Assembly: GCA_051866635.1 (NCBI GenBank)
Contig: JBJDXJ010000011.1
Coordinates: forward strand, 1 to 64,000
Origin: Clostridia bacterium
GTDB lineage: Bacteria > Bacillota > Clostridia > UMGS1883
Reading direction: 5' to 3'
Length of the DNA: 64,000 nt
Below are positions 20,802-49,841 of the stretch, piece by piece; the stretch's first letter is position 1; the number at the start of each line of letters is the position of its first letter. The position numbers and the translations under genes were made by a program. The notes under the pieces were generated by a model. It searched no databases. It worked only from the letters and a program-made list of their open reading frames with translations, and was not told the origin of the DNA.

Positions 20802-20872
20802 ATTAAAAATCTTCCTCCTACAGTTATTAAACAGTATGTGTAGAAATAATTCAAAAAAACAACTCTTTACAA

Positions 20873-21847: not shown

Positions 21848-21870
21848 CAACTAATCAACATATTTTAACT

Positions 21871-23849: not shown

Positions 23850-23877
23850 TGTAGTTCCTCCTCGCTAATTTACAAAT

Positions 23878-26800: not shown

Positions 26801-27063
26801 ATGGCATCGGGTCTTTCACGTCTTATAATCTTTGCAATATATTCCAGATTAAGAGGCTCCATATATACCTTATCCGCAACTGTTGTATCAGTCATAATTG
26901 TTGCGGGATTTGAATTGCAAAGGATAACTTCATAACCTTCTTCCCTAAGTGCAAGACATGCCTGAGTTCCTGCATAGTCAAACTCTGCCGCCTGTCCTAT
27001 AACTATGGGACCTGAACCGATAACGAGAACCTTTTTTATATCTTGTCTTTTAGGCATTTTCAT
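23878..27063 (-). CDS. carB: Carbamoyl-phosphate synthase large subunit
   Basis: [17 protein letters not shown], duplicated ATP-grasp domains (EVNPR twice), MGS domain. Confidence 0.98.
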
Positions 27064-28147: not shown

Positions 28148-28162
28148 TGTGAAACCCCGCTT

Positions 28163-32743
<4,581 letters not shown>

Positions 32744-32752
32744 CTCTTAATT

Positions 32753-34168
32753 TTAAAGATTAATTTCTGCTGTTTCTCTGGAAATATCAGACACTAATGG
32801 TCTTATTTTATTAAGATAAGCCTCCACCTGTTCAGGACATCTGCCTATATACAAGGAGGGAGTCAAAAGAGTGTTCATTTCGCTTTCAGTTAAACCAAAA
32901 TCCTTTTCCTTTGCCAAACGTGAAAGCAAATCACATTCTTCACCGTTCTTCATTTTTGCAGTAGCTTCCATTGAACACTTTCTTATAATTTCATGAAGCT
33001 GCTGGCGGTCGCCACCCTTCTTTACCGCTTCCATCATCAAGTTTTCTGTTGCGATAAAGGGCAGATATTCTTTAACTGTTTTTTCAACAATCTTTTCGTT
33101 CACCACAAGTCCGTCTGTAACGTTTTGTGCAAGTCGTAATATGGCATCTGCACAAAGGAAACCTTCGGGAATTGAAATACGTCTGTTTGCACTGTCGTCA
33201 AGTGTTCTTTCAAGCCACTGAACAGACGCTGTCATGGAAGCATTTTGTGTATCTGCCATAAGATAACGTGCCAAAGAACAGATACGTTCACTTCTCATGG
33301 GGTTACGTTTATATGCCATAGCGGAAGAACCAATCTGATTTTTTTCAAAGGGTTCTTCTACCTGTCTGTCATGCTGTAAAAGTCTTATATCGTTTGCCAT
33401 ACGGTAACAGCTCTGTGCAATAGAAGAAAGTGCATTCAGAATTCTGCTGTCAACCTTTCTGGGATAAGTCTGTCCGCAAACGTCAAAGCACTGTGAAAAA
33501 CCAAAATCTTTTGAAATCTGTCTGTTCATTTCATCAATCTTTGACATATCACCGTCAAACAAATCAACAAAGCTTGCTTCTGTGCCTGTAGTACCGCGGC
33601 AACCGAGGAACTTAATGTTTTCTATTGCAAATTCAACTTCATTAAGATCTGACATAAAGTCCTGAAGCCAAAGTGTGGCTCTCTTTCCCACTGTTACAAG
33701 CTGAGCAGGCTGATAATGGGTGTAGCCAAGTGTAGGCAAAGATTTAAACTTGTCTGCAAAGTCAACAAGGTTTGCAATAACCTTTAAAAGTTCATTCTTA
33801 ATGTAAAGTAAACCATCACGGTAAATAACAAGGTCTGCATTATCTGTTACATAACAGCTTGTTGCACCTAAATGAATAATACCTGCCGCCAAAGGTGCCA
33901 CTTTGCCGTAAGCATAAACATGTGCCATAACATCATGTCTTACTTCTTTTTCTCTCTGTGCTACTACATCATAATCGATATCTTCGATGTGTTCTTCCAT
34001 CTGGGAAATCTGTTCCTTTGTAACAGGAAGCCCCAAATTCATTTCTGCCTTAGCAAGAGCCACCCAAAGCTTACGCCATGTCTGATAACGTGTATCTGAT
34101 GAAAAAAGCTTGAGCATATATTCTGACGCATATCTGGATGATAACGGGGATTCATATTTATTTGTCAT
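32753..34168 (-). CDS. purB: Adenylosuccinate lyase
   Basis: PLSSRYAS, RHDVMAH, THYQPAQ, GSSAMAYKRNP. Confidence 0.97.
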   Translation of the reverse strand: MTNKYESPLSSRYASEYMLKLFSSDTRYQTWRKLWVALAKAEMNLGLPVTKEQISQMEEHIEDIDYDVVAQREKEVRHDVMAHVYAYGKVAPLAAGIIHLGATSCYVTDNADLVIYRDGLLYIKNELLKVIANLVDFADKFKSLPTLGYTHYQPAQLVTVGKRATLWLQDFMSDLNEVEFAIENIKFLGCRGTTGTEASFVDLFDGDMSKIDEMNRQISKDFGFSQCFDVCGQTYPRKVDSRILNALSSIAQSCYRMANDIRLLQHDRQVEEPFEKNQIGSSAMAYKRNPMRSERICSLARYLMADTQNASMTASVQWLERTLDDSANRRISIPEGFLCADAILRLAQNVTDGLVVNEKIVEKTVKEYLPFIATENLMMEAVKKGGDRQQLHEIIRKCSMEATAKMKNGEECDLLSRLAKEKDFGLTESEMNTLLTPSLYIGRCPEQVEAYLNKIRPLVSDISRETAEINL

Positions 34169-34228
34169 GATTTATCTCCTTTATCTGACTTTTATTTTAT
34201 CAATCGTTTTTAACTAAGCAAGTAATGC

Positions 34229-35503
34229 TTATCTTATTATTATACTGTCTCTTTCAGGACCTACGGAAACATACTTAATTCTGCAACCGATAGCTTCTTC
34301 GATATATGTTACATAATCCTTTGCTTCCTTGGGCAATTCGTCCCATGTACGAATAGAGGAAACGTCACACTTCCAGCCGTCCAGATATTCTATTACCGCT
34401 TCAGCTCTCTTAAGTGCTGAGGGGAATGGGAATTCATCTGTAACCTGACCGTCTAAAAGGTAATGTGAGCATACGGGGATTTTATCCAGATAGCTTAACA
34501 CATCAAGCTTTGTAAGTGCAATTTCTGTTGCACCCTGAACCTCTACACCGTATCTTGTTGCAACTATGTCAATAGGTCCTACTCTACGTGGTCTGCCTGT
34601 TTTTGCACCGTATTCAAAGCCTGCTTCTCTGAGCTTTTCAGCTTCTTCGCCGAACATTTCGCAAACGAAGGGACCTTCGCCAACGCATGTGGAATAAGCC
34701 TTTACAACACCTATAACATTATCAATTTTTGCGGAAGGGAGTCCTGAACCGATAGGTGCGTAAGCCGCAGTTGTGTTTGAAGATGTTGTATAGGGATGAA
34801 TGCCGTAATCAAGGTCACGAAGTGAACCAAGCTGAGCTTCAAACATAATATTTTTGCCCTTCTTCTGTGCATCGCGAAGGTAGCTTCCCGTATTGCAAAC
34901 ATAAGGCTTTATCTTTTCACAATAATTTGAAATCCAATCTTCAAGCATTTCCATTGTGTAGGGTTCTGCTCCATAAACCTTTGTTAAAGTTAAGTTTTTC
35001 CATTCCATAATATCGGAAAGGTGTGCTCTCAATTCTTCAGGGTAGAAAAGTTCACCGGCTAAAATTGTCTTTTTCTGATACTTATCCGAGTAAAAAGGTG
35101 CGATACCCTGCTTTGTAGAACCGAATTTCTTGTCAGCAAGTCTCAATTCTTCAAGAGCGTCCAAATCTCTATGCCAAGGGAGCAAAAGAGAAGCTCTGTC
35201 ACTTATCTTTAAATTTTCGGCAGTAAGGGATACACCCTTGCTTTCAACTTCCTGTATCTCGTTCCACAAGTTCTCGGGGTCAAGTGCTACGCCGTTACCC
35301 AATATATTTACTACGCCTTCTCTGAAAATACCTGAAGGAAGAAGGTGAAGTGCAAACTTACCCTTTTCGTTAATTACAGTATGTCCTGCATTGCCGCCGC
35401 CCTGAAAGCGTACAACAACATCATAATCTTCTGTGATTAAGTCAACCATTCTGCCCTTGCCTTCATCGCCCCAGTTTATACCTACGATTGCACAATTTGA
35501 CAT
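34229..35503 (-). CDS. purA: Adenylosuccinate synthase
   Basis: WGDEGKG, GGGNAGHT, TGRPRR, LTKLDVL. Confidence 0.97.
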   Translation of the reverse strand: MSNCAIVGINWGDEGKGRMVDLITEDYDVVVRFQGGGNAGHTVINEKGKFALHLLPSGIFREGVVNILGNGVALDPENLWNEIQEVESKGVSLTAENLKISDRASLLLPWHRDLDALEELRLADKKFGSTKQGIAPFYSDKYQKKTILAGELFYPEELRAHLSDIMEWKNLTLTKVYGAEPYTMEMLEDWISNYCEKIKPYVCNTGSYLRDAQKKGKNIMFEAQLGSLRDLDYGIHPYTTSSNTTAAYAPIGSGLPSAKIDNVIGVVKAYSTCVGEGPFVCEMFGEEAEKLREAGFEYGAKTGRPRRVGPIDIVATRYGVEVQGATEIALTKLDVLSYLDKIPVCSHYLLDGQVTDEFPFPSALKRAEAVIEYLDGWKCDVSSIRTWDELPKEAKDYVTYIEEAIGCRIKYVSVGPERDSIIIR

Positions 35504-35516
35504 TTTTTTCCCTCCA

Positions 35517-36230
35517 TTACTTATGCTCTAAAGCTCTTCTCATAACTTCAGTGTATGCGTCCTCAACACCGCCCAGATCACGTCTGAATCTGTCTTTGTC
35601 AAGCTTTTCACCTGTTTCGCTGTCCCAAAGTCTGCAAGTGTCGGGGCTGATTTCGTCAGCAAGGATTATAGTACCGTCACTTGTTTTACCGAACTCAAGC
35701 TTAAAGTCAACTAAAGTTACACCACATTCCTTCCAGAATGACTTAAGGAATTCATTTACCTTAAAAGCATATTCTTCTATTATTTCAATTTCTTCCCTTG
35801 TTGCGGCACCGATAGCTATAGCATGGTAATCGTTCATCAAAGGATCGCCCAAGTCGTCGTTCTTATATGAAAATTCAACTGTGGGATTTTCAAAAACAGT
35901 TCCTTCAGGAACACCGAAACGCTTTGAAAATGAACCTGCCGCAATATTTCTTACTATAACCTCCAAAGGAACAATTGAAACCTTCTTTACAACTGTTTCA
36001 CGGGGGGAAAGTTCTTCAACAAAGTGGGTGGGAACACCATATTCGGAAAGCTTGTCCATAAGCATGTTGCTCATGCGGTTATTGATTTCGCCCTTTCCTG
36101 AAATTGTTCCCTTCTTCAAGCCGTTAAATGCAGTTGCATCATCCTTATATGATACAATCAACAATTCGGGGTTGTCTGTAGCATACACCTTTTTTGCTTT
36201 ACCTTCATACAACTGAGCTTTCTTTTCCAT
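35517..36230 (-). CDS. purC: SAICAR synthase
   Basis: [35 protein letters not shown]. Start at ATG 36230 after GAGGT. Confidence 0.97.
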
Positions 36231-36309
36231 AACATAAACCTCATTTCTTAAAACTTTTATATTATTATAATTATTCACTATGTTATGAAGGAGCGCCCCG
36301 TTTCAAATC

Positions 36310-36440
36310 AAAAAAATAAAGGCGTCTTTAACGCTATTCATGCATTAAAGACGCCTTTGCCTTTTACTTGTATTTTACGTCCAAAACAAAAAGTCAGACA
36401 ATAATCCCGACATGACATCGAAGACGCCTTTGCCCTCACA
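36310..36440 (-). promoter_or_regulatory. ANTAR-responsive leader of the purC...dapL operon (two hairpins plus terminator)
   Basis: GGC-AAAGGC-GTC at 36423-36434 and 36350-36361 (3-bp stem, 6-nt loop with A1/G4). The second hairpin overlaps the 5' arm of a terminator (36310-36358). Confidence 0.8.
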
Positions 36441-36446
36441 GAGTAT

Positions 36447-36475
36447 GTTATACACTATTTTGGCTGATTTGTCAA
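36447..36475 (-). promoter_or_regulatory. Sigma-A promoter of the purC operon
   Basis: TTGACA-17 nt-TATAAC. Confidence 0.75.
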
Positions 36476-36485
36476 TACAAAATAC

Positions 36486-36525
36486 AAAAAAATCCAACCG
36501 CATTTTATAACACAGCCGGATTTTT
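36486..36525 (-). terminator. Intrinsic terminator after asnB
   Basis: AATCCGGCTG...CGGTTGGATT stem followed by a U tract. Confidence 0.7.
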
Positions 36526-36537
36526 CTGAATTTAAAA

Positions 36538-38115
36538 TCAAATTCCGCTGTCGCCGTAGTTTGACAACACTCTTGCCGACGGGTCATCTACGTTACAGCC
36601 TTCCCATTCTTTGTTAGGCATCCAGAAATCTACAATCATTTTGCCCTGACCGGGATAGTACTTTTCAAAAAGTTCACGGTAAAGAAGTGATTCCTTCGTG
36701 AAGGGCTGAGCATGAGTATACTTTTTGCGTTTTTCTTCAAATTCTCCATCTGTGTAGAAGGATGATGCATATTCCTTAAGATAATCAACCATGGAATGAC
36801 CTACCGCATCGGAAAATGCCGCCTTTTCACGGTAAAGAATAGACTTTGGAAGATAATCGCCCTCAAATGCGTGACGAAGAAGGTATTTACCTTTGCCGTA
36901 CTTGTTAAGCTTAATTTCAGGGTCAATGGCCATTACATACTTAACAAAATCCAAATCTCCAAAGGGAACTCTTGCTTCAAGCGAGTTTACGGAAATACAA
37001 CGGTCTGCACGAAGAACATCGTACATATGTAATTCACGTATTCTCTTTTCAGCCTCCTTTTGGAAAGCCTCGGCAGAAGGTGCAAAGTCTGTGTATTTAT
37101 AACCGAACAATTCATCGGATATTTCTCCTGTGAGAAGAACTCTGATATCAGTCTGCTCGTGTATGGCTTTGCATATTAAATACATACCCATACTTGCACG
37201 GATTGTAGTTATGTCAAAAGTACCTAAAAGATGAACTACTGTTTCTAACGATGAAAGCACATCATCTTTTGTGATAATAATTTCCTTATGGTCACTGCCT
37301 ATGTAATCTGCCACTTCCTTTGCATATTTAAGGTCGATGGCATCCTCGCTCATACCGATGGCAAATGTTTTGATGGGTGTTTTGCTCATCTTCTGGGCTA
37401 TTGCACAAACAAGCGAAGAGTCAAGACCGCCGGAGAGTAAGAAACCAACCTTTGCGTCTGCAACCAATCTCTTTTCAACGCCTTTAACAAGTTTGTCATG
37501 AATGTTTTTGCAAGCTGTTTCAACGCTGTCTGTAGAAATTTCATCTACCTTTGCAATATCGTTGTAGCATACAAATTTGCCGTCTTTGTAGTAATGTCCC
37601 GGAGGGAAAGGCATTATATCTTTTGCAAGACCTACAAGGTTTTTAGGTTCACTTGCAAAAAGGATTATACCTTCTTCATCATAGCCGTAATAAAGGGGTC
37701 TGATACCGATGGGGTCACGGGCTGCAATATATTCCTTTGTTTGTCCGTCATAAATAATGCATACAAATTCGGCATCGAGCATTTTAAACATTTCCACGCC
37801 GTATTCCTGATACAAAGGAAGAAGTATTTCACAGTCGGACTCACTTTGGAAAGTATACTTTTCCGACAACTGTTTTTTAATCTTTTCAAAGCCGTATATT
37901 TCTCCGTTACAAACGACAAAACTCTCCCCAAGCTGAAAGGGCTGCATACCTAAATCGTTCAGCCCCATTATGGAGAGACGGTGAAAGCCTAAATAGCCCT
38001 CTGATGTATCTACTATCTTTGATGCATCGGGACCACGTGAAATTGTTCTTTGAAAACCTTCTTTAAATCGGGAAAGGTCTGCACCTTTACCGCAATAACC
38101 CATAATTGAACACAT
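36538..38115 (-). CDS. asnB: Asparagine synthetase B (glutamine-hydrolysing)
   Basis: N-terminal Cys (MCSI), RGPD, HRLSI, SGGLDSS, LEARVPF, DPSAR. Confidence 0.96.
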   Translation of the reverse strand: MCSIMGYCGKGADLSRFKEGFQRTISRGPDASKIVDTSEGYLGFHRLSIMGLNDLGMQPFQLGESFVVCNGEIYGFEKIKKQLSEKYTFQSESDCEILLPLYQEYGVEMFKMLDAEFVCIIYDGQTKEYIAARDPIGIRPLYYGYDEEGIILFASEPKNLVGLAKDIMPFPPGHYYKDGKFVCYNDIAKVDEISTDSVETACKNIHDKLVKGVEKRLVADAKVGFLLSGGLDSSLVCAIAQKMSKTPIKTFAIGMSEDAIDLKYAKEVADYIGSDHKEIIITKDDVLSSLETVVHLLGTFDITTIRASMGMYLICKAIHEQTDIRVLLTGEISDELFGYKYTDFAPSAEAFQKEAEKRIRELHMYDVLRADRCISVNSLEARVPFGDLDFVKYVMAIDPEIKLNKYGKGKYLLRHAFEGDYLPKSILYREKAAFSDAVGHSMVDYLKEYASSFYTDGEFEEKRKKYTHAQPFTKESLLYRELFEKYYPGQGKMIVDFWMPNKEWEGCNVDDPSARVLSNYGDSGI

Positions 38116-38119
38116 AAAA

Positions 38120-38365
38120 ATTACCTCCGTATATTCATCTCAGCAATTTTATAGGGCAAGTGCTGTACTCGCGGTGCCACCTATATTTTTTCTCATTTCT
38201 GCCTTTTGTAAGCTTCCGATTAACGCACGGTTACGACGCACCTACTAAAATTTCTTTTTTCAGATTGCAGCTCGAAAAGTGTTATTCATACGGGACCGGA
38301 TCATGGCTCTCACCATCCCATGCTCGCTTTCTCCGATTTTTCCGTATTACTTCTCTTTTCTCAAA
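38120..38365 (-). ncRNA. T-box riboswitch, Asn (AAC) specifier, upstream of asnB
   Basis: Stem I with AGCGAG and GGTGAGA loops; specifier GAAT-AAC-A (38281-38283); AGTAG and CCGT boxes; antiterminator TATAGG-TGGCACC-GCGAGT-loop-ACTTGC-CCTATA. Confidence 0.9.
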
Positions 38366-38443
38366 CGCTTTTGTTTTCAGACACCTACCACAAAGCGTTA
38401 TACACTTTGTGGCAGGGCCAAGTTTTTATATTTCTAATGGTTT

Positions 38444-40192
38444 TTATTCAACGTCCTGGAGTGCGTCGTAACCTTCTTCGCCTGTACGAACCTTTACAAC
38501 GTTTTCAACATCGTAAACGAAAATCTTACCGTCACCGATGTGACCTGTGTAAAGAACCTTCTTTGCTGTTTCGATTACGCTTCTTACAGGAACCTTGCTT
38601 ACTACCATTTCAACCTGAATTTTGGGAAGTAAGCTGGGTTCAACTTCTACACCACGGTAGTATTCGGGTTTACCCTTCTGAACACCGCAACCCATAACGT
38701 GAGTTACCGTCATACCTGTAATACCAATATTAAGCATACTTGACTTAAGTGCTTCAAGCATTCTTTCACGGCATACAATTTCAATCTTTGTCAGCTTGTG
38801 CTCGCCTTCTGTGAAGGAGGGCATCTTCTTAACTTCTACAGCCTCTGCTACGGGAACACTGCCTGTTACAACTGTTGCACCGGGAAGAGAATCATAGCTG
38901 TGGGGAACAATTCCAAAGTCTGCATAAGAGCTGGGAAGACCGTGTTCTGTCTTGTCAAGACCTGTAAGTTCTTCTTCAGCACTTGCACGAAGACCTACTG
39001 TCTTGTTGATTACAGTAAATGTGATTAACATTGTTACTGCTGTCCAAGCAACGATTGCAACGATACCTATTGTCTGAACACCTAAAAGTGTTGCATCGCC
39101 TGTGTAGAACAAACCGTCAAGACCTGCAGGGGCATCAGGATTTGCCAAAAGACCTACTGCCAGTGTTCCCCAGATACCGTTTGCCATATGTACACCTACA
39201 GCACCAACGGGGTCGTCAACGTGAAACTTAATGTCCAAGCCTTCAACAACTACTACAACCAAGATACCGGATACAACGCCTACTACCAAGGAACCGAAAG
39301 CGTCCAATGCATCACAGCCCGCTGTAATACCAACAAGTCCTGCCAAAGATGCGTTCAAACACATTGAAACATCGGGTTTACCATTCTTAATCCAAGTAAA
39401 TACCATACATACAACAGTTGCAACTGCGGGAGCGATTGTTGTTGTAAGGAAGATTGAACCAAGTTCGGGAACACTTGTTGCTGCGGCACCGTTGAAGCCG
39501 TACCAGCCAAACCAAAGGATAAAGCAACCTAAAGCACCAATAGTGATTGCATGACCGGGAATAGCGTTAACCTTTGTAACCTTACCGTTTTTGTCTGTAA
39601 CGTACTTACCGATTCTGGGACCTAAAATCATCGCACCGATAAGAGCCGCTACACCACCTACTGTGTGAATTGCCGCACTACCTGCATAATCATGGAAGCC
39701 CATGCTTGCAAGCCAGCCCTGGCTGTTCCAAACCCAACCTGCTTCGATGGGATATACAACAAGGGAGATAACGCCTGAATAAATACAGTATGCCAAGAAC
39801 TTTGTTCTTTCTGCCATAGCACCGGATACAATTGTTGCCGCTGTTGCACAGAATACAAGGTTAAATACAAAACTTGATGCATTTCCCTCTATAAATCCGC
39901 CGAAATCGGTGAAAATGCTCATGTTGGGCACACCGATAAATCCAAACAGATAATCTTCAGCCATCATAAGTGAAAAGCCTAAGAACACGAACATTACAGT
40001 ACCTATACAGAAGTCCATAAGGTTCTTCATAATAATGTTACCTGCGTTCTTTGCTCTTGTGAAGCCTGTTTCAACCATTGCGAAGCCTGCCTGCATAAAG
40101 AATACAAGTGCTGCACCGATCAAAAACCAGACTGCAAACACCTGTTCTGACACGGCTCCTGTTACCAATTCCATTAATTCTGTACCTACCAT
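38444..40192 (-). CDS. amt: Ammonium transporter fused to C-terminal P-II (GlnK) domain
   Basis: FFMQAGFA, IVSGAMAER, DYAGSAAIH, WFGWYGFN, DDPVGAVGVH, then YRG..LLPK..TGHIGDGKIFV..VRTGEEG. Confidence 0.95.
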   Translation of the reverse strand: MVGTELMELVTGAVSEQVFAVWFLIGAALVFFMQAGFAMVETGFTRAKNAGNIIMKNLMDFCIGTVMFVFLGFSLMMAEDYLFGFIGVPNMSIFTDFGGFIEGNASSFVFNLVFCATAATIVSGAMAERTKFLAYCIYSGVISLVVYPIEAGWVWNSQGWLASMGFHDYAGSAAIHTVGGVAALIGAMILGPRIGKYVTDKNGKVTKVNAIPGHAITIGALGCFILWFGWYGFNGAAATSVPELGSIFLTTTIAPAVATVVCMVFTWIKNGKPDVSMCLNASLAGLVGITAGCDALDAFGSLVVGVVSGILVVVVVEGLDIKFHVDDPVGAVGVHMANGIWGTLAVGLLANPDAPAGLDGLFYTGDATLLGVQTIGIVAIVAWTAVTMLITFTVINKTVGLRASAEEELTGLDKTEHGLPSSYADFGIVPHSYDSLPGATVVTGSVPVAEAVEVKKMPSFTEGEHKLTKIEIVCRERMLEALKSSMLNIGITGMTVTHVMGCGVQKGKPEYYRGVEVEPSLLPKIQVEMVVSKVPVRSVIETAKKVLYTGHIGDGKIFVYDVENVVKVRTGEEGYDALQDVE

Positions 40193-40222
40193 TTTGATGC
40201 CTTCTTTCTAAAAACTCTTAAT

Positions 40223-42316
40223 TTATCTTACGCCGAAAAGCAATTCACCGTATGTGGGGAATGGCCAGAATTTTTCGGCTGTAATTACTTCTGCCTCATC
40301 ACAAGGAACACGAAGTTCACTCATCTTGGGAAGAAGTTCATCACGAATCATATATCCTTCTTCTTCTACACTTGTCGCATCGGAAAGCTTAGATATAGCC
40401 TTGTCAAGCTCGTCACATCTTTCATAAATCTGGCTTGCCAGGGATGAAAGCTTCTTAACAGTTTCTGTTTCGTATGTTGCAGGGATTGAAGAGTCAAGTG
40501 CCTTTTTAGCCCCTGCCGCCTTTGCAACAAATGCCGCATATTCTTCAATTGCGGGTAAGATTTCTCTCTTTGCAATCTGACTCATAGTGTTTGCTTCGAT
40601 AACAACACTCTTGCAGTAGTTTTCCAAAGTGATTTCGCAACGGGACTTAAGTTCTGCTTCGGAGAATACCTTGTGCTTTGTAAGCATTTCTACATTCTTC
40701 TTATCAAGTAAGTGAGGAATAGCATCGGGAGTAGTTCTTAAGTTCATAAGACCTCTCTTTTCTGTTGCTTCCTTAATCCACTCATCATCATAACCGTTTC
40801 CGTTGAAGATGATTCTCTTGTGGTCCTTGATAGTCTTCTTAATCATTTCATGAAGTGTTGTTTCAAAATCCTCGGCATTTTCAAGTCTGTCAGCATAAAT
40901 CTGCAAGCTTTCTGCAACAGCCGCATTAATCATAATGTTTGCACATGCAATGCTGTTTGAAGAACCAAGCATTCTGAATTCAAACTTGTTGCCTGTAAAC
41001 GCGAAGGGTGAAGTTCTGTTTCTGTCTGTTGTATCACGGTTAAACTTGGGAAGTACATCAACACCAAGCTTCATCTGTGTCTTTTCTGTTCCCTTGTAAG
41101 GAGTATCTGTTTCGATTGCTTCCAATACTGCGTTAAGCTCGTCACCGAGGAACATTGAAACAACAGCGGGAGGTGCTTCGTTAGCACCGAGTCTGTGGTC
41201 GTTACCGGAGGTTGCAACACTGATACGAAGCAAATCCTGATAATCGTCTACAGCCTTTATAACTGCACAAAGGAAAATAAGGAACTGTGCATTTTCGTAA
41301 GGTGTTTCACCGGGAGAAAGGAGGTTTACTCCCGTATCTGTTGCCATGGACCAGTTGTTGTGCTTACCGCTACCGTTTACACCTGCAAAGGGCTTTTCAT
41401 GAAGGAGACATACAAGATTGTGTTTAGATGCCACCTTCTGCATAATTTCCATTGTAATCTGGTTGTGGTCAGTTGCAATGTTTGTTGTTGAATAAATAGG
41501 AGCAAGCTCGTGCTGAGCAGGTGCAACTTCGTTGTGCTGAGTTTTAGCAAGAATTCCCAACTTCCACAATTCTTCGTTAAGCTCTGTCATGTATGCTTCA
41601 ACTCTGGGCTTGATTACGCCGAAATAGTGATCGTCCATTTCCTGACCCTTGGGAGGCTTTGCACCGAAAAGTGTTCTGCCTGTATAAATAAGGTCTTTAC
41701 GCTTTTCAAAAAGCTCCTTGGGAACTAAGAAATATTCTTGTTCGGGACCAACTGATGTATGTACATATTTTGCTTCTGTTCCGAAAAGTTTCAAAATACG
41801 AAGTGCTTGCTTATTAAGTGCTTCCATGGAGCGAAGAAGAGGTGTCTTTTTGTCAAGTGCTTCACCGCCGTATGAGCAGAAAGCTGTGGGAATACAAAGT
41901 GTCTTACCTTTTATAAAAGCAAATGATGTAGGATCCCATGCTGTATATCCTCTTGCTTCAAATGTAGCACGGAGACCACCGGAAGGGAAACTTGATGCAT
42001 CAGGTTCACCCTTGATAAGCTCCTTGCCTGAGAAATCCATAATAACTCTTCCGTCCGGAGAAGGAGAAATAAAACTGTCGTGCTTTTCAGCAGTAATACC
42101 TGTAAGAGGCTGGAACCAATGTGTATAATGTGTGGCACCATTTTCAACTGCCCATTCTTTCATGGCTTCTGCAACGGCATTTGCTACAGATAAGTCAAGC
42201 TTTGCTCCTTCATCAATAGTTTTCTTCAGTGAATTGTACACTTTAGATGAAAGGCGGGATTTCATGACTCTGTCATCAAATACCAAGCTTCCAAAATAGT
42301 CAGGTACAGTTTTCAT
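40223..42316 (-). CDS. glnN: Glutamine synthetase type III
   Basis: [69 protein letters not shown]; 697 aa. Confidence 0.95.
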
Positions 42317-42515
42317 AATAATTCACATAGCCTTTCTGCCACAAATATTAATGAAAATTAATTTTTACGCTCTTGCTGTGGCGGACAAGGCGTATAATGC
42401 GAATTGTGTCCATGTGCGTTTTCCGAGCAAGCGAGGAAATTCTCGCACGGACAATCAAATCCGCCGGAGGCTTAATGTGAAAACTTTCACGTTAAACATC
42501 TCCTTAATAAATAGC

Positions 42516-42760
42516 TAAAGGCGTCTTTAATGTAAAATACACTAAAGACGCCTTTGCCTTTTTTAACATATTAGTTTGTTTTGTAATAAAACACACCATA
42601 CATTTACAATCTGTACTTTTTTGTCACCCCATTGTGACAGACAGACGTAAAATGCATCTTCCCGATTACATATTAACATATGATAACCATTCTGCTTTTA
42701 TTAACAAAAAAAGAAAAGCCGTCAAAGAGTTTTACCTCTAAGACGTCTTTGCCTTACAAC
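42516..42760 (-). promoter_or_regulatory. ANTAR-responsive leader of the GSIII-amt-asnB operon
   Basis: GGC-AAAGAC-GTC (42742-42753) overlapping a terminator (42706-42750); GTCAC-AATGGG-GTGAC (42623-42638); GGC-AAAGGC-GTC (42547-42558) overlapping a second long stem (42516-42555). Confidence 0.78.
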
Positions 42761-42764
42761 GCAC

Positions 42765-42793
42765 ATGATACACTCATATTTTTCGTTTGTCAA
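42765..42793 (-). promoter_or_regulatory. Sigma-A promoter of the GSIII operon
   Basis: TTGACA-17 nt-TATCAT. Confidence 0.75.
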
Positions 42794-42852
42794 CCCTTTT
42801 TTTGAATTTTTTGCTAAATTTTTTTCAAAATCCGGAAATTTACATTTTTCTA

Positions 42853-42881
42853 TTGACAAAATTTGATTTTTATTGTATAGT
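42853..42881 (+). promoter_or_regulatory. Sigma-A promoter of the glutamate synthase operon
   Basis: TTGACA-17 nt-TATAGT. Confidence 0.75.
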
Positions 42882-42892
42882 TGTCGCAAATG

Positions 42893-42948
42893 GGCAAAGA
42901 CGTTCATTCACTTAAGGGATACCCTTGCGGTGAATGGCGTCTTTTTTT
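42893..42948 (+). promoter_or_regulatory. ANTAR hairpin plus attenuator terminator of the glutamate synthase operon
   Basis: GGC-AAAGAC-GTT (42893-42904) overlaps the terminator GACGTTCATTCAC...GTGAATGGCGTC-T7. Confidence 0.78.
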
Positions 42949-42978
42949 GTTTTATTAAGGACGAAAGGACGTGGACCT

Positions 42979-44076
42979 ATGAAATTAGAAGGTCAGGTAC
43001 GAATTCCTTCAGGCTGTGCAATTGCCGCAGTAATATCTAAGGAAGGAAATCCTATGACAGGTGAAAAGATAATCGATGCCATGAAACCCATGCACGACCG
43101 TTCCAACGGTTTGGGAGGAGGATTTGCGGCGTACGGTATCTATCCCGAGTATAAAGATTTTTATGCATTGCATTTTTTCTTTGATGACCGTTCTACACGT
43201 AAAGAATGTGAGCAGTTTTTAAAGGAAAGATTTGAAATTGTTAAATCTGAACTTATCCCTACAAGGAAAATACCTCAGATTACAGACGAACCTATTATAT
43301 GGAGATATTTTGTAGCTCCTTTAAAATCTGTTCTTCTTTCTATGCAGCTTGATGAAAACGAATTTGTTGCACAGACTGTAATGAAGATAAACACACAGAT
43401 GCACGGAGCATACGTATTTTCAAGCGGTAAAAACATGGGTGCATTTAAAGCTGTGGGATTTCCTGAAGATGTGGGCGTATTTTATAAACTTGACGAATAC
43501 GAAGGCTATTCCTGGACAGCACACGGTCGTTATCCTACCAACACTCCCGGCTGGTGGGGCGGTGCTCATCCCTTTACACTTCTTGACTATTCTATTGTAC
43601 ATAACGGTGAAATTTCATCTTACGATGCAAACCGCCGCTTTATAGAAATGTTCGGTTATAAGTGTACTTTGCAAACAGATACGGAAGTTATTACATATAT
43701 AATGGACTATTTGCTTAGAAGGCAAAACCTTACACTTTCTGAAGCCGCCAGCGTTATCGCTGCACCCTTCTGGAGTACTATTGAAAATAAGACAGATTTG
43801 GAAGATAAAGAAAAGCATATATATTTAAGAACACTTTTCCCAAGTCTTCTTATAACAGGTCCCTTCTCTATTGTTTTCGGCTTTAACGGCGGACTTATGG
43901 CGTTAAATGACCGTTTGAAACTTCGCAGCATGGTTGTAGGCGAAAAGGACGACAAGGTTTATATTGCCAGCGAAGAAGCCGCTATCCGTGTAATGGAACC
44001 TGATGCTGAAAACATCTGGGCACCTAAAGGCGGAGAACCTGTAATTGTTAAAGTGAAGGACGGTGCAATGATATGA
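42979..44076 (+). CDS. Glutamate synthase amidotransferase subunit (GltB1-like, class II GATase)
   Basis: SGCAIA Cys, RSNGLGGG, AHGRYPTNT..WGGAHPF, HNGEISSY, TDTEV. Start at ATG 42979. Confidence 0.9.
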   Translation: MKLEGQVRIPSGCAIAAVISKEGNPMTGEKIIDAMKPMHDRSNGLGGGFAAYGIYPEYKDFYALHFFFDDRSTRKECEQFLKERFEIVKSELIPTRKIPQITDEPIIWRYFVAPLKSVLLSMQLDENEFVAQTVMKINTQMHGAYVFSSGKNMGAFKAVGFPEDVGVFYKLDEYEGYSWTAHGRYPTNTPGWWGGAHPFTLLDYSIVHNGEISSYDANRRFIEMFGYKCTLQTDTEVITYIMDYLLRRQNLTLSEAASVIAAPFWSTIENKTDLEDKEKHIYLRTLFPSLLITGPFSIVFGFNGGLMALNDRLKLRSMVVGEKDDKVYIASEEAAIRVMEPDAENIWAPKGGEPVIVKVKDGAMI

Positions 44077-45578
44077 GTGTCCAATTTATCTATCCCGAAT
44101 TTGAAGTTGTAAGAAATCAGAATCGTTGTATAGCTTGTCGTGTATGCGAAAGACAGTGTTCCAACGAAGTACATTCATATGATGAAGAAAATAGAATTGT
44201 AATAAGCGATGAATCTAAATGCGTAAACTGTCAGAGATGTGTTTCTCTCTGCCCCACAAGAGCATTGAAAATTGTAAAGAGTGACTGCACATTTCGTGAA
44301 AATGCGAACTGGCAGAATGACACAATAAAGGAAGTATATAAGCAGGCAAACAGCGGTGCTGTTCTTCTTTCATCAATGGGCAATCCCAAGCCCCTTCCTG
44401 TATATTGGGATAAAATTTTAATCAATGCATCTCAGGTAACAAACCCACCTATCGATCCCCTTCGTGAACCTATGGAAACCCGTGTGTTCTTGGGGGCTAA
44501 GCCCGAAAAGGTTCAGCGTGACGAAAACGGAAAATTAAAGTGCAATCTTCCGCCACAGCTTGAGCTTTCCATGCCTGTTATGTTCTCTGCAATGAGCTAC
44601 GGTTCGATAAGCTACAATGCACACGAGTCATTGGCAAGAGCCGCAACAGAGCTTGGTATTTTATATAACACAGGTGAAGGCGGTCTTCATGAAGATTTCT
44701 ATTGCTACGGTGAAAATACAATCGTTCAGGTTGCATCAGGCCGTTTCGGTGTACATAAGGATTATTTAGAGGCAGGTGCCGCCGTTGAAATTAAAATGGG
44801 TCAAGGTGCAAAGCCCGGTATAGGCGGACACCTTCCCGGTGCTAAAATTGTGGGCGATGTTTCAAGAACAAGAATGATTCCCGAAGGCAGTGACGCTATT
44901 TCTCCTGCTCCCCACCACGACATATATTCTATTGAAGATTTACGTCAGCTTGTATACTCTTTAAAGGAAGCTACAGAATATAAAAAGCCTGTTATTGTAA
45001 AGGTTGCGGCAGTTCACAATATTGCGGCTATCGCAAGCGGTATTGCCAGAAGCGGTGCCGATATAATTGCAATTGACGGTTTCCGTGGCGGTACAGGTGC
45101 CGCACCCACAAGGATACGTGATAACGTTGGTATTCCCATTGAATTGGCTTTAGCATCTGTTGACAGCCGTCTTCGTGAAGAAGGTATCAGAAACAATGTT
45201 TCTTTGGTTGTGGGCGGTTCTATCCGCAGTGCATCAGACGTTGTAAAGGCAATAGCACTCGGTGCAGATGCATGCTATGTTGCTACAGCGGCACTTTTAG
45301 CACTTGGCTGTCACCTTTGCCGTACTTGTCAGAGCGGCAAGTGCAACTGGGGTATTGCAACACAAAGACCTGAACTTGTAAAAAGACTTAACCCAGATAT
45401 GGGAAGCGAACGCTTAATAAATCTGATGAATGCCTGGAAACATGAAATTAAAGAGCTTATGGGCGGTATGGGCATAAACTCTATAGAAGCACTCCGCGGT
45501 AACAGACTGATGCTTCGTGGTGTGGGACTTACTGACAGGGAGCTTTCTATACTTGGCATTTCTCACGCAGGAGAGTGA
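44073..45578 (+). CDS. Glutamate synthase FMN-binding subunit with N-terminal 2[4Fe-4S] domain (GltB2-like)
   Basis: Two CxxCxxCxxxC motifs, AMSYGS, NTGEGG, QVASGRFG, GQGAKPGIGGHLP, CHLCRTC..GKC. Confidence 0.93.
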   Translation: MSVQFIYPEFEVVRNQNRCIACRVCERQCSNEVHSYDEENRIVISDESKCVNCQRCVSLCPTRALKIVKSDCTFRENANWQNDTIKEVYKQANSGAVLLSSMGNPKPLPVYWDKILINASQVTNPPIDPLREPMETRVFLGAKPEKVQRDENGKLKCNLPPQLELSMPVMFSAMSYGSISYNAHESLARAATELGILYNTGEGGLHEDFYCYGENTIVQVASGRFGVHKDYLEAGAAVEIKMGQGAKPGIGGHLPGAKIVGDVSRTRMIPEGSDAISPAPHHDIYSIEDLRQLVYSLKEATEYKKPVIVKVAAVHNIAAIASGIARSGADIIAIDGFRGGTGAAPTRIRDNVGIPIELALASVDSRLREEGIRNNVSLVVGGSIRSASDVVKAIALGADACYVATAALLALGCHLCRTCQSGKCNWGIATQRPELVKRLNPDMGSERLINLMNAWKHEIKELMGGMGINSIEALRGNRLMLRGVGLTDRELSILGISHAGE

Positions 45579-45583
45579 TAAAA

Positions 45584-46024
45584 ATGAAACTTGTATATGC
45601 AAACGAAAAATGGTGCATAGGCTGTCACTTATGTGAATATAACTGTGCATTTGCCAATTCAGGCAAAAATAACATGGTAAAGGCATTAAAGGATAAAGAA
45701 ATATTCCCCCGTGTATGTGTGGAAGATACCGGCAAAATCACCTATGCAGTTTCCTGTCGTCATTGCGACGACCCTATCTGTGTAAAGAGCTGTATTTCAG
45801 GTGCACTTTCAAAACAGGACGGCGTAATCAAAATTGATAAAGAAAAATGTATCGGTTGCCTCACATGTATACTGGTCTGTCCTTACGGTGCCCTGTCGCA
45901 AGGCGAAAAGGGTGCAGTGCAGAAATGCGAATTGTGCCTTGAAAATTCATGCGGTGCTCCTGCATGTGTAGCAGGATGCCCCAACAGAGCTCTTGTTTAC
46001 GAAGAAAGAGGTGATACAGAATGA
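45584..46024 (+). CDS. 4Fe-4S dicluster (polyferredoxin-like) subunit
   Basis: Four Cys clusters: CIGCHLC, CRHC..C..C, CIGCLTC..CP, KCELC..C..CP. Confidence 0.9.
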   Translation: MKLVYANEKWCIGCHLCEYNCAFANSGKNNMVKALKDKEIFPRVCVEDTGKITYAVSCRHCDDPICVKSCISGALSKQDGVIKIDKEKCIGCLTCILVCPYGALSQGEKGAVQKCELCLENSCGAPACVAGCPNRALVYEERGDTE

Positions 46025-47268
46025 AAAATTATTGTATTATCGGTAACGGTGTTGCCGCGGCAGGTTGTATTGAAGGTATAAGAAGTGTTGATAAAGATAA
46101 TAAAATTACAGTAATTTCAGAAGAAAATTACCCTGTATACTGCCGTCCCCTTATTTCATATTATCTTGAAGAAAAAACAACTATCAAAAAAATGAATTAC
46201 CGTGCCGAAAACTTTTATGAAGCAAACGGCTGTGAAGTAATTTACGGAAAAAAGGCTGTAGAAATTAATGAAAATGACAAAATCGTAAAACTTGACGACA
46301 ATACATCTGTATCCTATGACTCTTTATGTATCGCCGCAGGCTCCTCCCCCTTTGTTCCGCCCATGGAAGGTCTTGAAACTGTTTCAAAGAAATTTTCATT
46401 TATGACAATAGACGATGCCCTTTCATTGGAAAAAGCCATCACAAAGGAGTCTAAGGTGCTTATTATCGGTGCAGGTCTTATCGGTCTTAAATGTGCCGAA
46501 GGTATTCGTGATAAGGTAGCTGAAATTACAGTTTGTGATTTGTCGGAAAGAATTCTTTCAAGTATATTTGACGATGAATGTGCCCGTCTTATGCAAAAGC
46601 ACCTTGAAAATAACGGCATAAAGTTTATGCTTGGGGATACTGCTGTGTCTTTCAATAAAAATACGGCAGTGATGAAAAGCGGTGCTAAGCTTGATTTTGA
46701 TGTGCTTGTTATTGCAGTTGGTGTCAGAGCAAACACATCTCTTTTCAAAAATATAGGCGGAGATACAAATCGCGGTATTATAGTTGACGACAAAATGCAG
46801 ACAAATAAGGAAGGCATATATGCCGCAGGTGACTGCACTGAAGGAAACGATATTACCATCGGACAAAAGCGAGTTCTTGCAATACTCCCCAACGCCTATA
46901 TGCAGGGCTTTTGTGCGGGAGAAAATATGGCAGGTGGCGATGGTGTATTTAATAATGCAATCCCCATGAACTCAATCGGATTTTTCGGACTTCACGCAAT
47001 GACAGCCGGAAGCTACTTTACGGAGGAAGAAGGCGGCACATTGTACGAAGAAAAAGGTGAAAACAGTATTAAAAGACTGTATATGAAGGATGGAATTCTT
47101 ACAGGTTATATTATTATAGGCGATGTTGACCGTGCGGGAATATACACCTCTCTTGTAAGAGAAAGAACACCTCTTGATACGGTAAATATGGATTTACTGA
47201 AAAAAAATCCGACCCTTGGAATATTTTCTGAAAAAATTCGTGGAAAAAAGCTGAGAGGTGTGTTATAA
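46021..47268 (+). CDS. NAD(P)/FAD-dependent oxidoreductase (probable electron donor to glutamate synthase)
   Basis: GNGVAA, GAGLIG, YAAGDC; coupled within the operon. Confidence 0.85.
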   Translation: MKNYCIIGNGVAAAGCIEGIRSVDKDNKITVISEENYPVYCRPLISYYLEEKTTIKKMNYRAENFYEANGCEVIYGKKAVEINENDKIVKLDDNTSVSYDSLCIAAGSSPFVPPMEGLETVSKKFSFMTIDDALSLEKAITKESKVLIIGAGLIGLKCAEGIRDKVAEITVCDLSERILSSIFDDECARLMQKHLENNGIKFMLGDTAVSFNKNTAVMKSGAKLDFDVLVIAVGVRANTSLFKNIGGDTNRGIIVDDKMQTNKEGIYAAGDCTEGNDITIGQKRVLAILPNAYMQGFCAGENMAGGDGVFNNAIPMNSIGFFGLHAMTAGSYFTEEEGGTLYEEKGENSIKRLYMKDGILTGYIIIGDVDRAGIYTSLVRERTPLDTVNMDLLKKNPTLGIFSEKIRGKKLRGVL

Positions 47269-47269
47269 T

Positions 47270-47989
47270 ATGACAATAGATGCAAAAAATGTGGATTATA
47301 AAGAATTAAATGAAGCATTAAAATCAGAAGATGATAGATGTGAGATTTCCTCATGTCTTGGTCAGCGATTTATTGCGGCAGGTTTGTCAGATAAATATAT
47401 TACGATACATGGTATTCCCGGTAACGCTCTCGGTGCGTATCTTAACGGTGCAGTCATTGAAGTTATGGGCAATGCACAGGACGCTGTGGGCGACACTATG
47501 AATGAGGGTGAAATAATCATTCACGGAAATATCGGCGATGCGGCAGGCTATGCAATGCGTGGCGGAAAAATATTTGTAAAAGGCAATGCCGGTTACCGTG
47601 CAGGTATTCATATGAAAGCATATAAGGAAAAACAGCCTCTCCTTGTCATTGGCGGCAAGGCAGGTAGCTTTTTGGGCGAATACCAGGCAGGCGGCACCAT
47701 AATTGTGCTCGGTATTGAAGATAATGACAAACCCATTGTAAGTAATTTCCCCGGAACAGGTATGCACGGCGGAAGAATGTTCCTTCGTTCCTCCTGTGAG
47801 GGTATTGAATTTCCAAGTCAGGTTACCTTAAGAAAGGCAACGGGCGAGGATTTAGATGAAATCAAAGGATATATTTCGGAATTTTGTGGTCATTTCGGAT
47901 ATAAAGAGGAAGATATTTTAAATTCTGAATTTACTGTTGTCACACCTGACAGCAAAAATCCCTATAAGCAGATGTACGTAGCAAATTAA
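47270..47989 (+). CDS. Glutamate synthase C-terminal GXGXG domain subunit (GltB3-like)
   Basis: GQRFI and repeated G..G..M..G motifs (GDTMNEG, GYAMRGG, GEYQAGG, GMHGG). Confidence 0.9.
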   Translation: MTIDAKNVDYKELNEALKSEDDRCEISSCLGQRFIAAGLSDKYITIHGIPGNALGAYLNGAVIEVMGNAQDAVGDTMNEGEIIIHGNIGDAAGYAMRGGKIFVKGNAGYRAGIHMKAYKEKQPLLVIGGKAGSFLGEYQAGGTIIVLGIEDNDKPIVSNFPGTGMHGGRMFLRSSCEGIEFPSQVTLRKATGEDLDEIKGYISEFCGHFGYKEEDILNSEFTVVTPDSKNPYKQMYVAN

Positions 47990-48008
47990 AAGAAAGTGGG
48001 TCAAAAAG

Positions 48009-49217: not shown

Positions 49218-49241
49218 TTATAAAGTGAAGGAGGTATTAAA

Positions 49242-49826
49242 ATGGATTTTAAAGAGCGAGTATACAGTGTACTTATAGTATCTGCATCTGACAAATTCAA
49301 TGCCTCCCTTAAGGAATTATTCCCCGATTTTAAATATAGTCCTGTGATTTTTGAAGCAAGTGTAAGCGGTGCAAAACGAGCAGTGATAGAGAGGGAATAT
49401 GATTTTATAATTATCAACTCTCCCCTTCCTGATGACGACGGAATACGTTTTTCCATTGATGTATGCACAGGTAAGAGTTCGGTTGTTATGATGCTTATAA
49501 GAAATGAAATATACCTGTCTGTTTTTGACAAGGTTTCAAAAAATGGCGTTTATACCCTTTCTAAGCCCACATCAAAGCAAACCATATACCAGGCACTTGA
49601 CTGGATGGCTTCCACAAGAGAAAGACTCAGAAAACTTGAAAAGAAAACAATTTCTCTTGAAGATAAGATGCAGGAAATCAGAATTGTTAACAAAGCAAAG
49701 TGGATTTTGATAACCAATCTTCAAATGACTGAAACAAATGCCCATCGTTACATTGAAAAACAGGCAATGGACAGATGCGTATCAAAAAAGGAAGTTGCGG
49801 AAGAAATTATAAGAACTTACTCATAA
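49242..49826 (+). CDS. ANTAR RNA-binding antiterminator with pseudo-receiver domain (NitR/AmiR-like)
   Basis: C-terminal IVNKAKWILI..MTETNAHRYIEKQAMDR..KKEVAEEI. The receiver fold has IVSA and IINSPLP in place of the acidic pocket and phospho-Asp. Confidence 0.92.
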   Translation: MDFKERVYSVLIVSASDKFNASLKELFPDFKYSPVIFEASVSGAKRAVIEREYDFIIINSPLPDDDGIRFSIDVCTGKSSVVMMLIRNEIYLSVFDKVSKNGVYTLSKPTSKQTIYQALDWMASTRERLRKLEKKTISLEDKMQEIRIVNKAKWILITNLQMTETNAHRYIEKQAMDRCVSKKEVAEEIIRTYS

Positions 49827-49841
49827 AAGGATGAAATAGGA

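Follow-up and report, generated by a model that had tools for sequence, protein, structure and literature searches.

A putative ANTAR antitermination regulon spanning ammonium assimilation, nucleotide synthesis, and lysine synthesis in a Clostridia bacterium

In Geobacter, the phosphorylated REC-ANTAR protein GnfR bound RNA containing CAGGCAAGGGCGCC (Ueki and Lovley 2010, PMC2995071), and the nifH, glnK, and amtB leaders of Geobacter sulfurreducens have a conserved CAGGCAANGGCGCC that overlaps their terminators; RNA binding and, in mutants, premature termination were both demonstrated for this system (PMC2995071). Ramesh 2012 defined the ANTAR target as two hexaloop hairpins with A at loop position 1 (A1) and G at position 4 (G4), the second of which overlaps a terminator (PMC3369931). 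At the eut sites, both hairpins, placed 5 to 12 nucleotides (nt) apart, were needed, and a change in the linker abolished induction (PMC3369931). According to Walshe 2022, the minimal ANTAR target is a single hexaloop in which G4 is the base-specific contact (PMC8934654). Ramesh 2012 also predicted nitrogen regulons in Firmicutes, comprising glutamine synthetase (GS), glutamate synthase, an ammonium transporter, a LysA homologue, and asparagine synthase (PMC3369931, Table S2), and in Clostridium thermocellum the cluster of GS, glutamate synthase (GOGAT), and ANTAR genes at Clo1313_2030-2036 is co-expressed, with an antiterminator role suggested for the ANTAR gene (PMC4676874). Here we analyze hexaloop hairpins in the leaders of three operons, and the ANTAR gene at position 49242, in the first 64,000 nt (the window) of contig JBJDXJ010000011.1 from a Clostridia bacterium (assembly GCA_051866635.1). 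To our knowledge, nitrogen control is poorly understood in the Clostridia that make up the dominant part of gut and rumen communities, where NtrBC is absent and TnrA/GlnR is often absent too.

We propose, with a probability of about 0.8, that the three operons make up a regulon controlled by antitermination through the ANTAR protein encoded at 49242. An earlier note on this DNA had put forward the same reading, and the A1/G4 loops, the mutual exclusion of hairpin and terminator, the sole ANTAR gene, and the synteny of the locus all argue for it. Each leader would carry a weak 6-base-pair (bp) hairpin with an AANGRN hexaloop, whose loop and 3' strand double as the 5' arm of a stronger terminator. 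By default the terminator would form and the transcript would stop in the leader; since the terminator is far stronger than the hairpin, it should form unless the hairpin is held. A dimer of the ANTAR protein (49242-49826) would bind the hexaloop hairpin on the nascent RNA, blocking the terminator and letting RNA polymerase continue. One unit under this control would comprise glutamate synthase, GS type I (GS-I), the regulator itself, and lysA; another, GS type III (GS-III), AmtB-PII, and then asnB; and a third, purC-purA-purB-guaA-pyrG-purF-carAB-dapF-dapL. Nitrogen assimilation and nitrogen spending on nucleotides, asparagine, and lysine would then rise together, presumably under nitrogen scarcity. 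Binding by the 49242 protein, the direction of the response, and its signal are the parts of this scheme that we infer from sequence. The leaders contain the following elements.

36475-36470 (-35 box TTGACA) and 36452-36447 (-10 box TATAAC), minus strand: promoter of the purC operon with a 17-nt spacer, read from the sequence
36420..36437, minus strand: hairpin 1a, 6-bp stem with loop AAAGGC, -5.2 kcal/mol alone, about 3 nt past the expected transcript start
36383..36411, minus strand: small 6-bp stem-loop followed by TTTTTGTTTT, terminator-like and separate from hairpin 1a
36347..36364, minus strand: hairpin 1b, AAAGGC-AAAGGC-GUCUUU, -3.5 kcal/mol, predicted antiterminator of terminator 1b
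36308..36358, minus strand: terminator 1b, perfect 17-bp stem (36358-36318) followed by ATTTTTTTGA (T7 run), -27.3 kcal/mol
42765..42793, minus strand: promoter of the GS-III operon, TTGACA-17-TATCAT, 11 of 12 consensus positions
42739..42756, minus strand: hairpin 2a, UAAGGC-AAAGAC-GUCUUA, at the transcript 5' end, -3.9 kcal/mol
42706..42750, minus strand: terminator 2a, imperfect stem (42750-42715) with a T run to 42706, -16.2 kcal/mol, 51.8 bits with model R1 (see below)
42623..42638, minus strand: variant hairpin GUCAC-AAUGGG-GUGAC, which keeps A1 and G4, read from the sequence and folded
42544..42561, minus strand: hairpin 2b, AAAGGC-AAAGGC-GUCUUU, from pattern match and folding
42517..42555, minus strand: terminator 2b, 18-bp stem, -28.8 kcal/mol, 65.5 bits with model R1
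42317..42516, minus strand: dispersed repeat of 200 nt, an insertion that separates terminator 2b from the GS-III start codon
42853..42881, plus strand: promoter of the glutamate synthase operon, TTGACA-17-TATAGT, 11 of 12 consensus positions
42890..42907, plus strand: hairpin 3, AUGGGC-AAAGAC-GUUCAU, at the transcript 5' end, -3.3 kcal/mol, row 1 of alignment A1 (see below)
42896..42953, plus strand: terminator 3, stem 42896-42944 with a T run, -25.5 kcal/mol, z -4.93

A pattern search of the window found five copies of GGCAAAGRCGTY with no mismatch, at 36350-36361, 36423-36434, 42547-42558, and 42742-42753 on the minus strand and at 42893-42904 on the plus strand; together with the variant at 42623, which was read from the sequence, these bear out the five copies and one variant listed by the earlier note. 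Permitting one mismatch added a single match (5323, minus strand), and when 100 dinucleotide-preserving shuffles of the window were searched in the same way, the mean was 0.87 matches and the maximum 4, with none reaching 6. The whole assembly of 2,329,367 bases holds six exact matches, five of which are the window copies; the sixth (contig C49:17515) appears, from a reading of its locus, to sit in a coding frame. All seven pattern matches that were read outside nitrogen-gene leaders in other genomes (G026, G028, and G033) also appear coding. One related genus is enriched for the exact pattern (10-14 matches per genome) yet has no ANTAR ortholog, and this enrichment was dropped as codon usage.

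All five exact copies are the core of a hairpin with the hexaloop AAAGGC or AAAGAC. Folding gave these hairpins a stem of 6 bp, in place of the 3-bp stem described earlier, and the variant has 5 bp, so that every stem reaches at least 3 bp. The A1 and G4 that Ramesh 2012 described for ANTAR targets are present in six of six window hexaloops, as is A2. Folding energies are -3.3 to -5.2 kcal/mol for the hairpins standing alone and -16 to -29 kcal/mol for the terminator modules. Hairpin and terminator exclude each other at four of the six hairpins: as claimed beforehand, the copies at 36350, 42547, 42742, and 42893 overlap terminator stems, and the 36423 copy and the 42623 variant do not. The 5' arm of terminator 1b consists of the loop and 3' strand of hairpin 1b, that of terminator 3 is likewise made from hairpin 3, and that of terminator 2a overlaps hairpin 2a. 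The leaders had been said to lie behind consensus sigma-A promoters, and a near-consensus promoter was found for each of the three; the promoter scanner omits that of the purC operon because the last base of its -10 box is C and the scanner needs T. Hairpins 1a, 2a, and 3 begin a few bases past the expected transcript start (approximately 3-12 nt after the -10 box), which leaves no space for an upstream P1 hairpin. A second hexaloop partner was sought in the apical loops of the terminators and none was found, these loops varying in both length and sequence.

In a covariance-model search of the genome, which the earlier note had suggested, model R1 (built from alignment A2) matched only the three class B modules 1b, 2a, and 2b, with module 1b scoring best of the whole genome at 68.2 bits. 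A relaxed hairpin-terminator scan of the whole genome gave 49 matches versus 52 in the reversed genome, no more than this control, and therefore the window sites alone stand out. At the level of sequence, the three operons appear to be the entire regulon of this genome. A generic scan for an ANNGNN hairpin plus terminator was too loose, giving 559 matches in 1.27 Mb and missing two true sites. With Rfam at gathering scores, the 64-kb window had no match; over 42280-43000, relaxing the limit to E = 1 gave only seven hairpin look-alikes, all of them sub-threshold. The element fits none of the Rfam families.

The genes behind the three leaders, with their neighboring features, were assigned from Pfam, NCBIfam, and the table of open reading frames.

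21871..36230, minus strand: operon A, purC, purA, purB, guaA, pyrG, purF, carA, carB, dapF, and dapL (Pfam and open reading frame table)
21806..21852, minus strand: 20-bp hairpin and T run, between the diaminopimelate aminotransferase gene and an EamA-family transporter gene
within 20160..21852, minus strand: EamA-family and FNT-family transporter genes downstream of operon A
36538..42316, minus strand: operon B, GS type III (40223-42316), AmtB-PII fusion (38444-40192), and the asparagine synthase B gene asnB (36538-38115) (Pfam and NCBIfam)
36528-36485, minus strand: terminator after operon B, from the terminator scan
38149..38374, minus strand: candidate T-box leader of asnB (RF00230), within the 328-nt gap upstream of asnB
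42979..51143, plus strand: operon C (Pfam and NCBIfam)
42979-47989, plus strand: split glutamate synthase, five genes of operon C
48009-49217, plus strand: type I GS, 402 residues, operon C
49242-49826, plus strand: REC-ANTAR regulator (PF03861), operon C
49842-51143, plus strand: diaminopimelate decarboxylase gene lysA, operon C

The ten genes of operon A are separated by gaps of at most 60 nt, and dapL, for LL-diaminopimelate aminotransferase, matches NCBIfam TIGR03542 at 481.8 bits. The biosynthetic enzymes of this operon take nitrogen from glutamine, aspartate, or glutamate or complete such a step (purB and dapF). The hairpin at 21852-21806 probably marks the true end of the purC operon; transcription may instead run through it into the transporter genes. 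The earlier estimate of about 21 regulated genes fits if operon A ends at this hairpin (10 + 3 + 8). Single-copy genes in this genome that all lie behind ANTAR leaders are purC, purA, purB, pyrG, dapF, dapL, glutamate synthase, and amtB-PII; second copies exist of carAB, lysA, and GS-III, and a partial second copy of guaA. No gdh was found in the genome by tblastn. The candidate T-box of asnB scored 87.2 bits (E 9.6e-20) over the full model (1-219), short of the gathering score of 93, and its specifier position reads AAC, a codon for Asn. In relatives, asnB follows GS-III within approximately 55 nt and without a T-box leader. Farther upstream in the window, 15042-17642 on the plus strand encodes an 866-residue protein with EF-G-like domains (GTP_EFTU, EFG III, IV, and C) and a C-terminal YacP-like NYN nuclease domain, an unusual fusion.

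The protein encoded at 49242 contains an ANTAR domain (PF03861, 56.7 bits versus a cutoff of 27.3), and a six-frame search of the genome gave one match, at 60 bits, so that 49242 is the only ANTAR gene of the genome. It lies inside operon C, one of the three operons that it would control, and thus the autoregulation proposed earlier is what its position predicts. The protein aligns to Rv1626, to EutV (chain 6wsh, E 1.6e-5), and to AmiR (chain 1qo0, E 2.2e-4). Its Asn59 aligns with the phospho-acceptor Asp of Rv1626 and EutV and is Asn in 84 of 84 orthologs, and the receiver's acidic pair near the N terminus is replaced by Ser-Ala. It thus lacks both features of a phosphorylated REC domain, the acceptor Asp and the acidic pair, and its Pfam REC score of 26.4 bits is below the cutoff of 30.2. 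By its sequence, the 49242 protein is a pseudo-receiver ANTAR protein, as in AmiR, and hence not an ordinary two-component response regulator. Because Asn occupies the usual phosphorylation site, a partner or ligand, and not a kinase, probably controls the activity of the protein. A general Pfam scan of the 28 proteins at 13502-53084 noted no kinase gene.

A type I GS gene lies directly upstream of the ANTAR gene in 71 of 72 loci, with a gap of 27-185 nt. Tentatively, and at less than even odds, GS-I may be the sensor, holding the ANTAR protein at high glutamine and freeing it when glutamine falls. Parallels are AmiC, which holds AmiR, and the feedback-inhibited GS that holds TnrA in Bacillus; deleting type I GS reportedly deregulates nitrogen metabolism in C. 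thermocellum, by the title of a 2017 study. When GS-I and the regulator were folded as a pair, the score was 0.55 (runs, 0.54-0.57), with the best control at 0.00, a partner pLDDT (predicted local distance difference test) of 84, and agreement between runs in at least 60% of contacts. The mark used was passed by 116 of 157 solved complexes and by 2 of 215 mismatched pairs; scores of 0.60 or less came from just 18 of the 157 solved complexes and from both passing mismatches, and such a pass is more often wrong unless the pair was likely beforehand. The predicted fold therefore lends weak support to a contact between GS-I and the regulator. If GS-I is the sensor, a single enzyme that gauges glutamine would govern, through antitermination, both the supply of nitrogen donors (GS, glutamate synthase, and AmtB) and the main sinks in gut and rumen Clostridia, these being purine, pyrimidine, carbamoyl phosphate, asparagine, diaminopimelate, and lysine.

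Orthologs of the ANTAR protein occur in 5 of 40 relatives. A collection-wide similarity search with the 49242 protein gave at least 561 relatives, and the best 80 of these, picked solely by similarity to that protein, formed the set of loci onto which the window proteins were mapped. They come from gut and rumen Clostridia labeled Acutalibacteraceae, Oscillospiraceae, Lachnospiraceae, and others. Cultured strains returned by the search as carriers of the locus include Mediterraneibacter agrestimuris DSM 111629, Allobaculum stercoricanis DSM 13633, and [Eubacterium] hominis. The loci show a conserved divergent arrangement, with glutamate synthase, GS type I, the ANTAR gene, and sometimes then lysA on one side and GS type III, sometimes preceded by gdh, on the other. 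Downstream of GS type III follow, varying by genome, amtB-PII, asnB, pyrG, purF, purC, purB, purA, carA, dapF, or an aminotransferase. When leaders were counted purely from gene positions, one or more hairpins occurred in 33 of 34 GS-III leaders (two hairpins in 17 of these), in all 11 gdh-GS-III spacers, in 11 of 12 gdh leaders, and in 35 of 41 gltB leaders; GS-III-amtB spacers had a hairpin in none of 15. Tandem hairpins are mostly 64-103 nt apart. In 95 sequences there are 240 core hairpins, 144 with an overlapping terminator, and 140 of those 144 lie outside mapped genes. As an observation apart, purC of the four same-genus genomes (within G001-G009) that have the gene is only 36-38% identical to that of the window, and purC of other genera is 66-72% identical.

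The hairpins fall into two sequence classes, a gltB type (AUGAGC-AAAGGC-GUUCAU) and a GS-III type (AAAGGC-AAAGGC-GUCUUU). Rows for alignments A1 (42 rows) and A2 (58 rows) were filtered on the three inner hairpin pairs, on loop bases A1, A2, and G4, and on no more than a single mismatch among the eight basal pairs of the terminator. Terminator stems are paired at 92.7% in alignment A1 and 91.6% in alignment A2 and hairpin stems at 99.6% and 96.6%, respectively, figures that, like the invariance of the filtered columns, arise partly by construction because the rows were chosen by the filter. The outer three hairpin pairs, which are free of the filter, are paired in 41, 42, and 42 of 42 rows (A1) and in 50, 56, and 56 of 58 rows (A2). 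In the terminator stem, 5 pairs and 23 cells are changed on both sides in A1 and 8 pairs and 84 cells in A2; in neither alignment did any of 500 shuffles reach the observed number of two-sided changed cells or the observed covariation score. Compensatory change in the hairpin stems is confined to the outermost pair of A2. Loop positions 3, 5, and 6 covary with the 3' arm of the terminator, and G4 and the wobble U of the stem are fixed while their terminator partners vary. When the 95 sequences were searched for the stem alone, 44 of 51 class A matches had AA[A/G]G loops, the other 7 being single unrelated loops. The loop consensus is written AANGRN because a looser class B search adds recurrent AAUGGC and AACGGC loops. 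Sequence anatomy, hairpin-terminator exclusion, conservation, covariation, the single ANTAR gene, and synteny are thus direct observations.

Rows of genes were joined across gaps of <300 nt, so that internal promoters are possible within them. Among 55 loci with element-led rows, the window included, such a row contains a nucleotide gene (pyrG, purF, purC, purA, purB, guaA, or carA) in 17 and a lysine-pathway gene in 6, both of them lower bounds because the loci extend at most 10 kb per side. Separate leaders of the same build stand before purC (L122 and L137), purA (L125), guaA (L081 and L121), and pyrG (L134). In G033, pyrG-purF-dapF-dapL directly follows the ANTAR gene, and in G015, carA-carB-pyrG does so. 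Because these leaders and gene rows recur beside orthologs, ANTAR control of nucleotide and lysine genes is predicted to be conserved.

Further genes lie behind elements of this kind. In two rumen genomes (L134:1098 and L120), an 862-residue protein of unassigned family is encoded between the hairpin-terminator and gltB and would be a member of the regulon. A promoter, hairpin, and terminator also precede a 397-residue lipoprotein that resembles an ABC substrate-binding protein (L087:3693, G033) and a 298-residue membrane protein (L100:17033), a hint that the regulon may include transport members.

The 200-nt repeat at 42317-42516 lies outside the switch. Four further long copies (149-188 nt, 90-93% identical) occur on contigs C25, C1, C41, and C6, and approximately 25 partial copies elsewhere in the genome consist of a hairpin core of roughly 50 nt. 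All five long copies stop exactly at the ATG of unrelated genes and have a common last 30 nt with GAAAGG, which resembles a Shine-Dalgarno sequence, and, 8 nt ahead of the gene ATG, an ATG-TGA start-stop. Orthologous GS-III leaders do not contain the repeat, and it has no Rfam match. By these features it looks like a mobile cassette of the 5' untranslated region.

Several observations weigh against the proposed ANTAR regulon. The paired P1/P2 hexaloops with a short linker (5-12 nt) of Ramesh 2012 are absent here. Two hairpins stand apart from any terminator: hairpin 1a is free-standing and overlaps none, starting 73 nt upstream of module 1b, and the variant at 42623 tops a longer stem, starts 80 nt upstream of hairpin 2b, and also has no overlapping terminator. 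Terminator 2b has a weak T tail, AGCTATTTAT. None of the nine same-genus genomes (G001-G009) has a regulator ortholog or an R1 match; horizontal acquisition of the entire nitrogen locus, or its loss from the congeners, may account for this. With purC, purA, purB, and pyrG present as sole copies behind a 17-bp terminator, the proposal requires that read-through be substantial or that the regulator be active almost constantly. The row filter and the possible internal promoters described above count on the same side. So does a survey of 87 genomes of the order, in which R1 matches (E up to 0.001) occur in 6 and regulator orthologs (E up to 1e-10) in 9, with both present in 4, only the regulator in 5, only an R1 match in 2, and neither in 76. 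Since the training alignment of R1 took in sites from the window, G026, G028, and G015 (the last scoring only 0.0013), these genomes were set aside, after which R1 matches remain in 1 of 5 regulator carriers and 2 of 78 genomes in which the query did not find a regulator, a weak test.

These points bear on what else the modules might be. The switch could be real for the two nitrogen-assimilation operons only, with the purC-leader copies being relics or under other control, and three things favor this: the free-standing hairpin 1a, the poor fit of sole-copy purC, purA, purB, and pyrG with a default-off switch, and the absence of the motif from all 16 purC upstream regions of relatives. We consider it improbable, since module 1b has the best R1 score of the genome and the strongest terminator (17 perfect pairs plus T7), other genomes have similarly built tandem leaders ahead of purC, purA, and guaA, and nucleotide genes stand in a row with GS-III or the ANTAR gene in the 17 of 55 loci described above; the link to nucleotide genes emerged only from loci anchored on the ANTAR gene and not from the 16 purC upstream regions. 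We hold it to be just as improbable that the modules are attenuators for another factor or constitutive partial terminators that resemble each other through common descent of duplicated leaders. The basal AAAG...CUUU of the terminators could persist simply as A-tract/U-tract extension, and the weak co-occurrence of R1 and regulator once the training genomes are aside would fit that account. Against it, the terminator partners of G4, of the closing C-G pair, and of the G-U wobble vary while these positions themselves are fixed, the loop signature equals that of the GnfR-bound site, and loci selected solely by the ANTAR gene have the modules flanking it. Furthermore, G012, one of the two genomes with an R1 match and no regulator, has its match 4 kb from a weak ANTAR-like match, and both of these assemblies are 82% complete. 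Finally, the motif might act at the DNA level, as an operator placed immediately after the promoters and recognized by a transcription factor; it is near-palindromic, AAGACGTCTT in leader 2 is a perfect 10-bp palindrome, and three copies lie within approximately 20 bp of a -10 box. This account was rejected as very improbable, since some copies occupy promoterless intergenic stretches, such as those from gdh to GS-III and from gdh to guaA, every copy is in the sense orientation, RNA pairing with the distant 3' arm is preserved by compensatory changes, and the modules end in U runs.

If the ANTAR regulon is as proposed, it would matter beyond this genome. The locus suggests that one RNA-binding protein and one 18-nt hairpin couple ammonium assimilation to nearly every step that spends nitrogen from the glutamine amide or aspartate (nucleotides, asparagine, and lysine). 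Known ANTAR regulons would then widen from nitrogen acquisition to nitrogen spending, engineers of anaerobes would gain a compact, portable attenuator, and cultured strains would come into view for a direct test of the signal path, possibly via GS type I.

The earlier note had regarded control of pur, pyr, car, and dap genes as going beyond demonstrated ANTAR regulons, and the literature agrees as far as it was covered. A word search of the supplementary files of Ramesh 2012 (PMC3369931) found no SAICAR, adenylosuccinate, amidophosphoribosyl, carbamoyl, CTP synth, GMP synth, purine, or pyrimidine; the LysA homologue was already listed there. A term search of a 2025 review of RNA-binding antiterminators (PMC12591593) tied no purine or pyrimidine synthesis to ANTAR in the passages returned. 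In a literature search combining ANTAR with CTP synthase, GMP synthase, or nitrogen limitation, no combination with either enzyme was among the matches listed.

GnfK/GnfR is the closest experimentally tested system. It has in common with the present locus a REC-ANTAR protein and a single CAGGCAANGGCGCC site (hairpin GGC-AANGGC-GCC) overlapping terminators in nitrogen-gene leaders, and the window motif differs from the GnfR site by one base in the 3' stem. In contrast, GnfR is phosphorylated by the kinase GnfK, whereas the 49242 protein and its orthologs have Asn at the acceptor; GnfR controls nitrogen fixation genes, whereas the putative regulon here consists of GS, glutamate synthase, asnB, and nucleotide and lysine steps; and GnfR-regulated promoters are RpoN dependent, whereas those here are of the sigma-A type. 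EutV/EutW of Enterococcus faecalis has a similar A1/G4 hexaloop, a hairpin sharing the terminator 5' arm, and an ANTAR dimer. However, the eut element is a hairpin pair, whereas hairpins here are single or in tandem at 73-80 nt start to start, usually each with its own terminator, and EutV is phosphorylated at Asp54, where the 49242 protein has Asn59. AmiR of Pseudomonas aeruginosa and NasT resemble it in being ANTAR proteins with an unphosphorylated receiver-like domain. In AmiC/AmiR and NasS/NasT, the product of a neighboring gene, a ligand-binding partner, holds the regulator. An AmiC-like or NasS-like gene is absent here, the constant neighbor being type I GS, and AmiR and NasT target amide or nitrate use, whereas the targets here are biosynthetic. 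The Clo1313_2030-2036 cluster has the same gene set of split glutamate synthase, GS type I, and REC-ANTAR gene. The published ANTAR nitrogen regulons, in the parts covered, do not contain nucleotide steps, and the regulon proposed here does. The mechanism is already known in kind, and the proposed regulon is wider than published. Compared with print as far as it was covered, what appears to be new is the conserved reach into nucleotide and lysine synthesis in gut Clostridia, the layout of single or tandem modules at the very 5' ends of predicted transcripts, and an invariant putative pseudo-receiver tied to GS type I.

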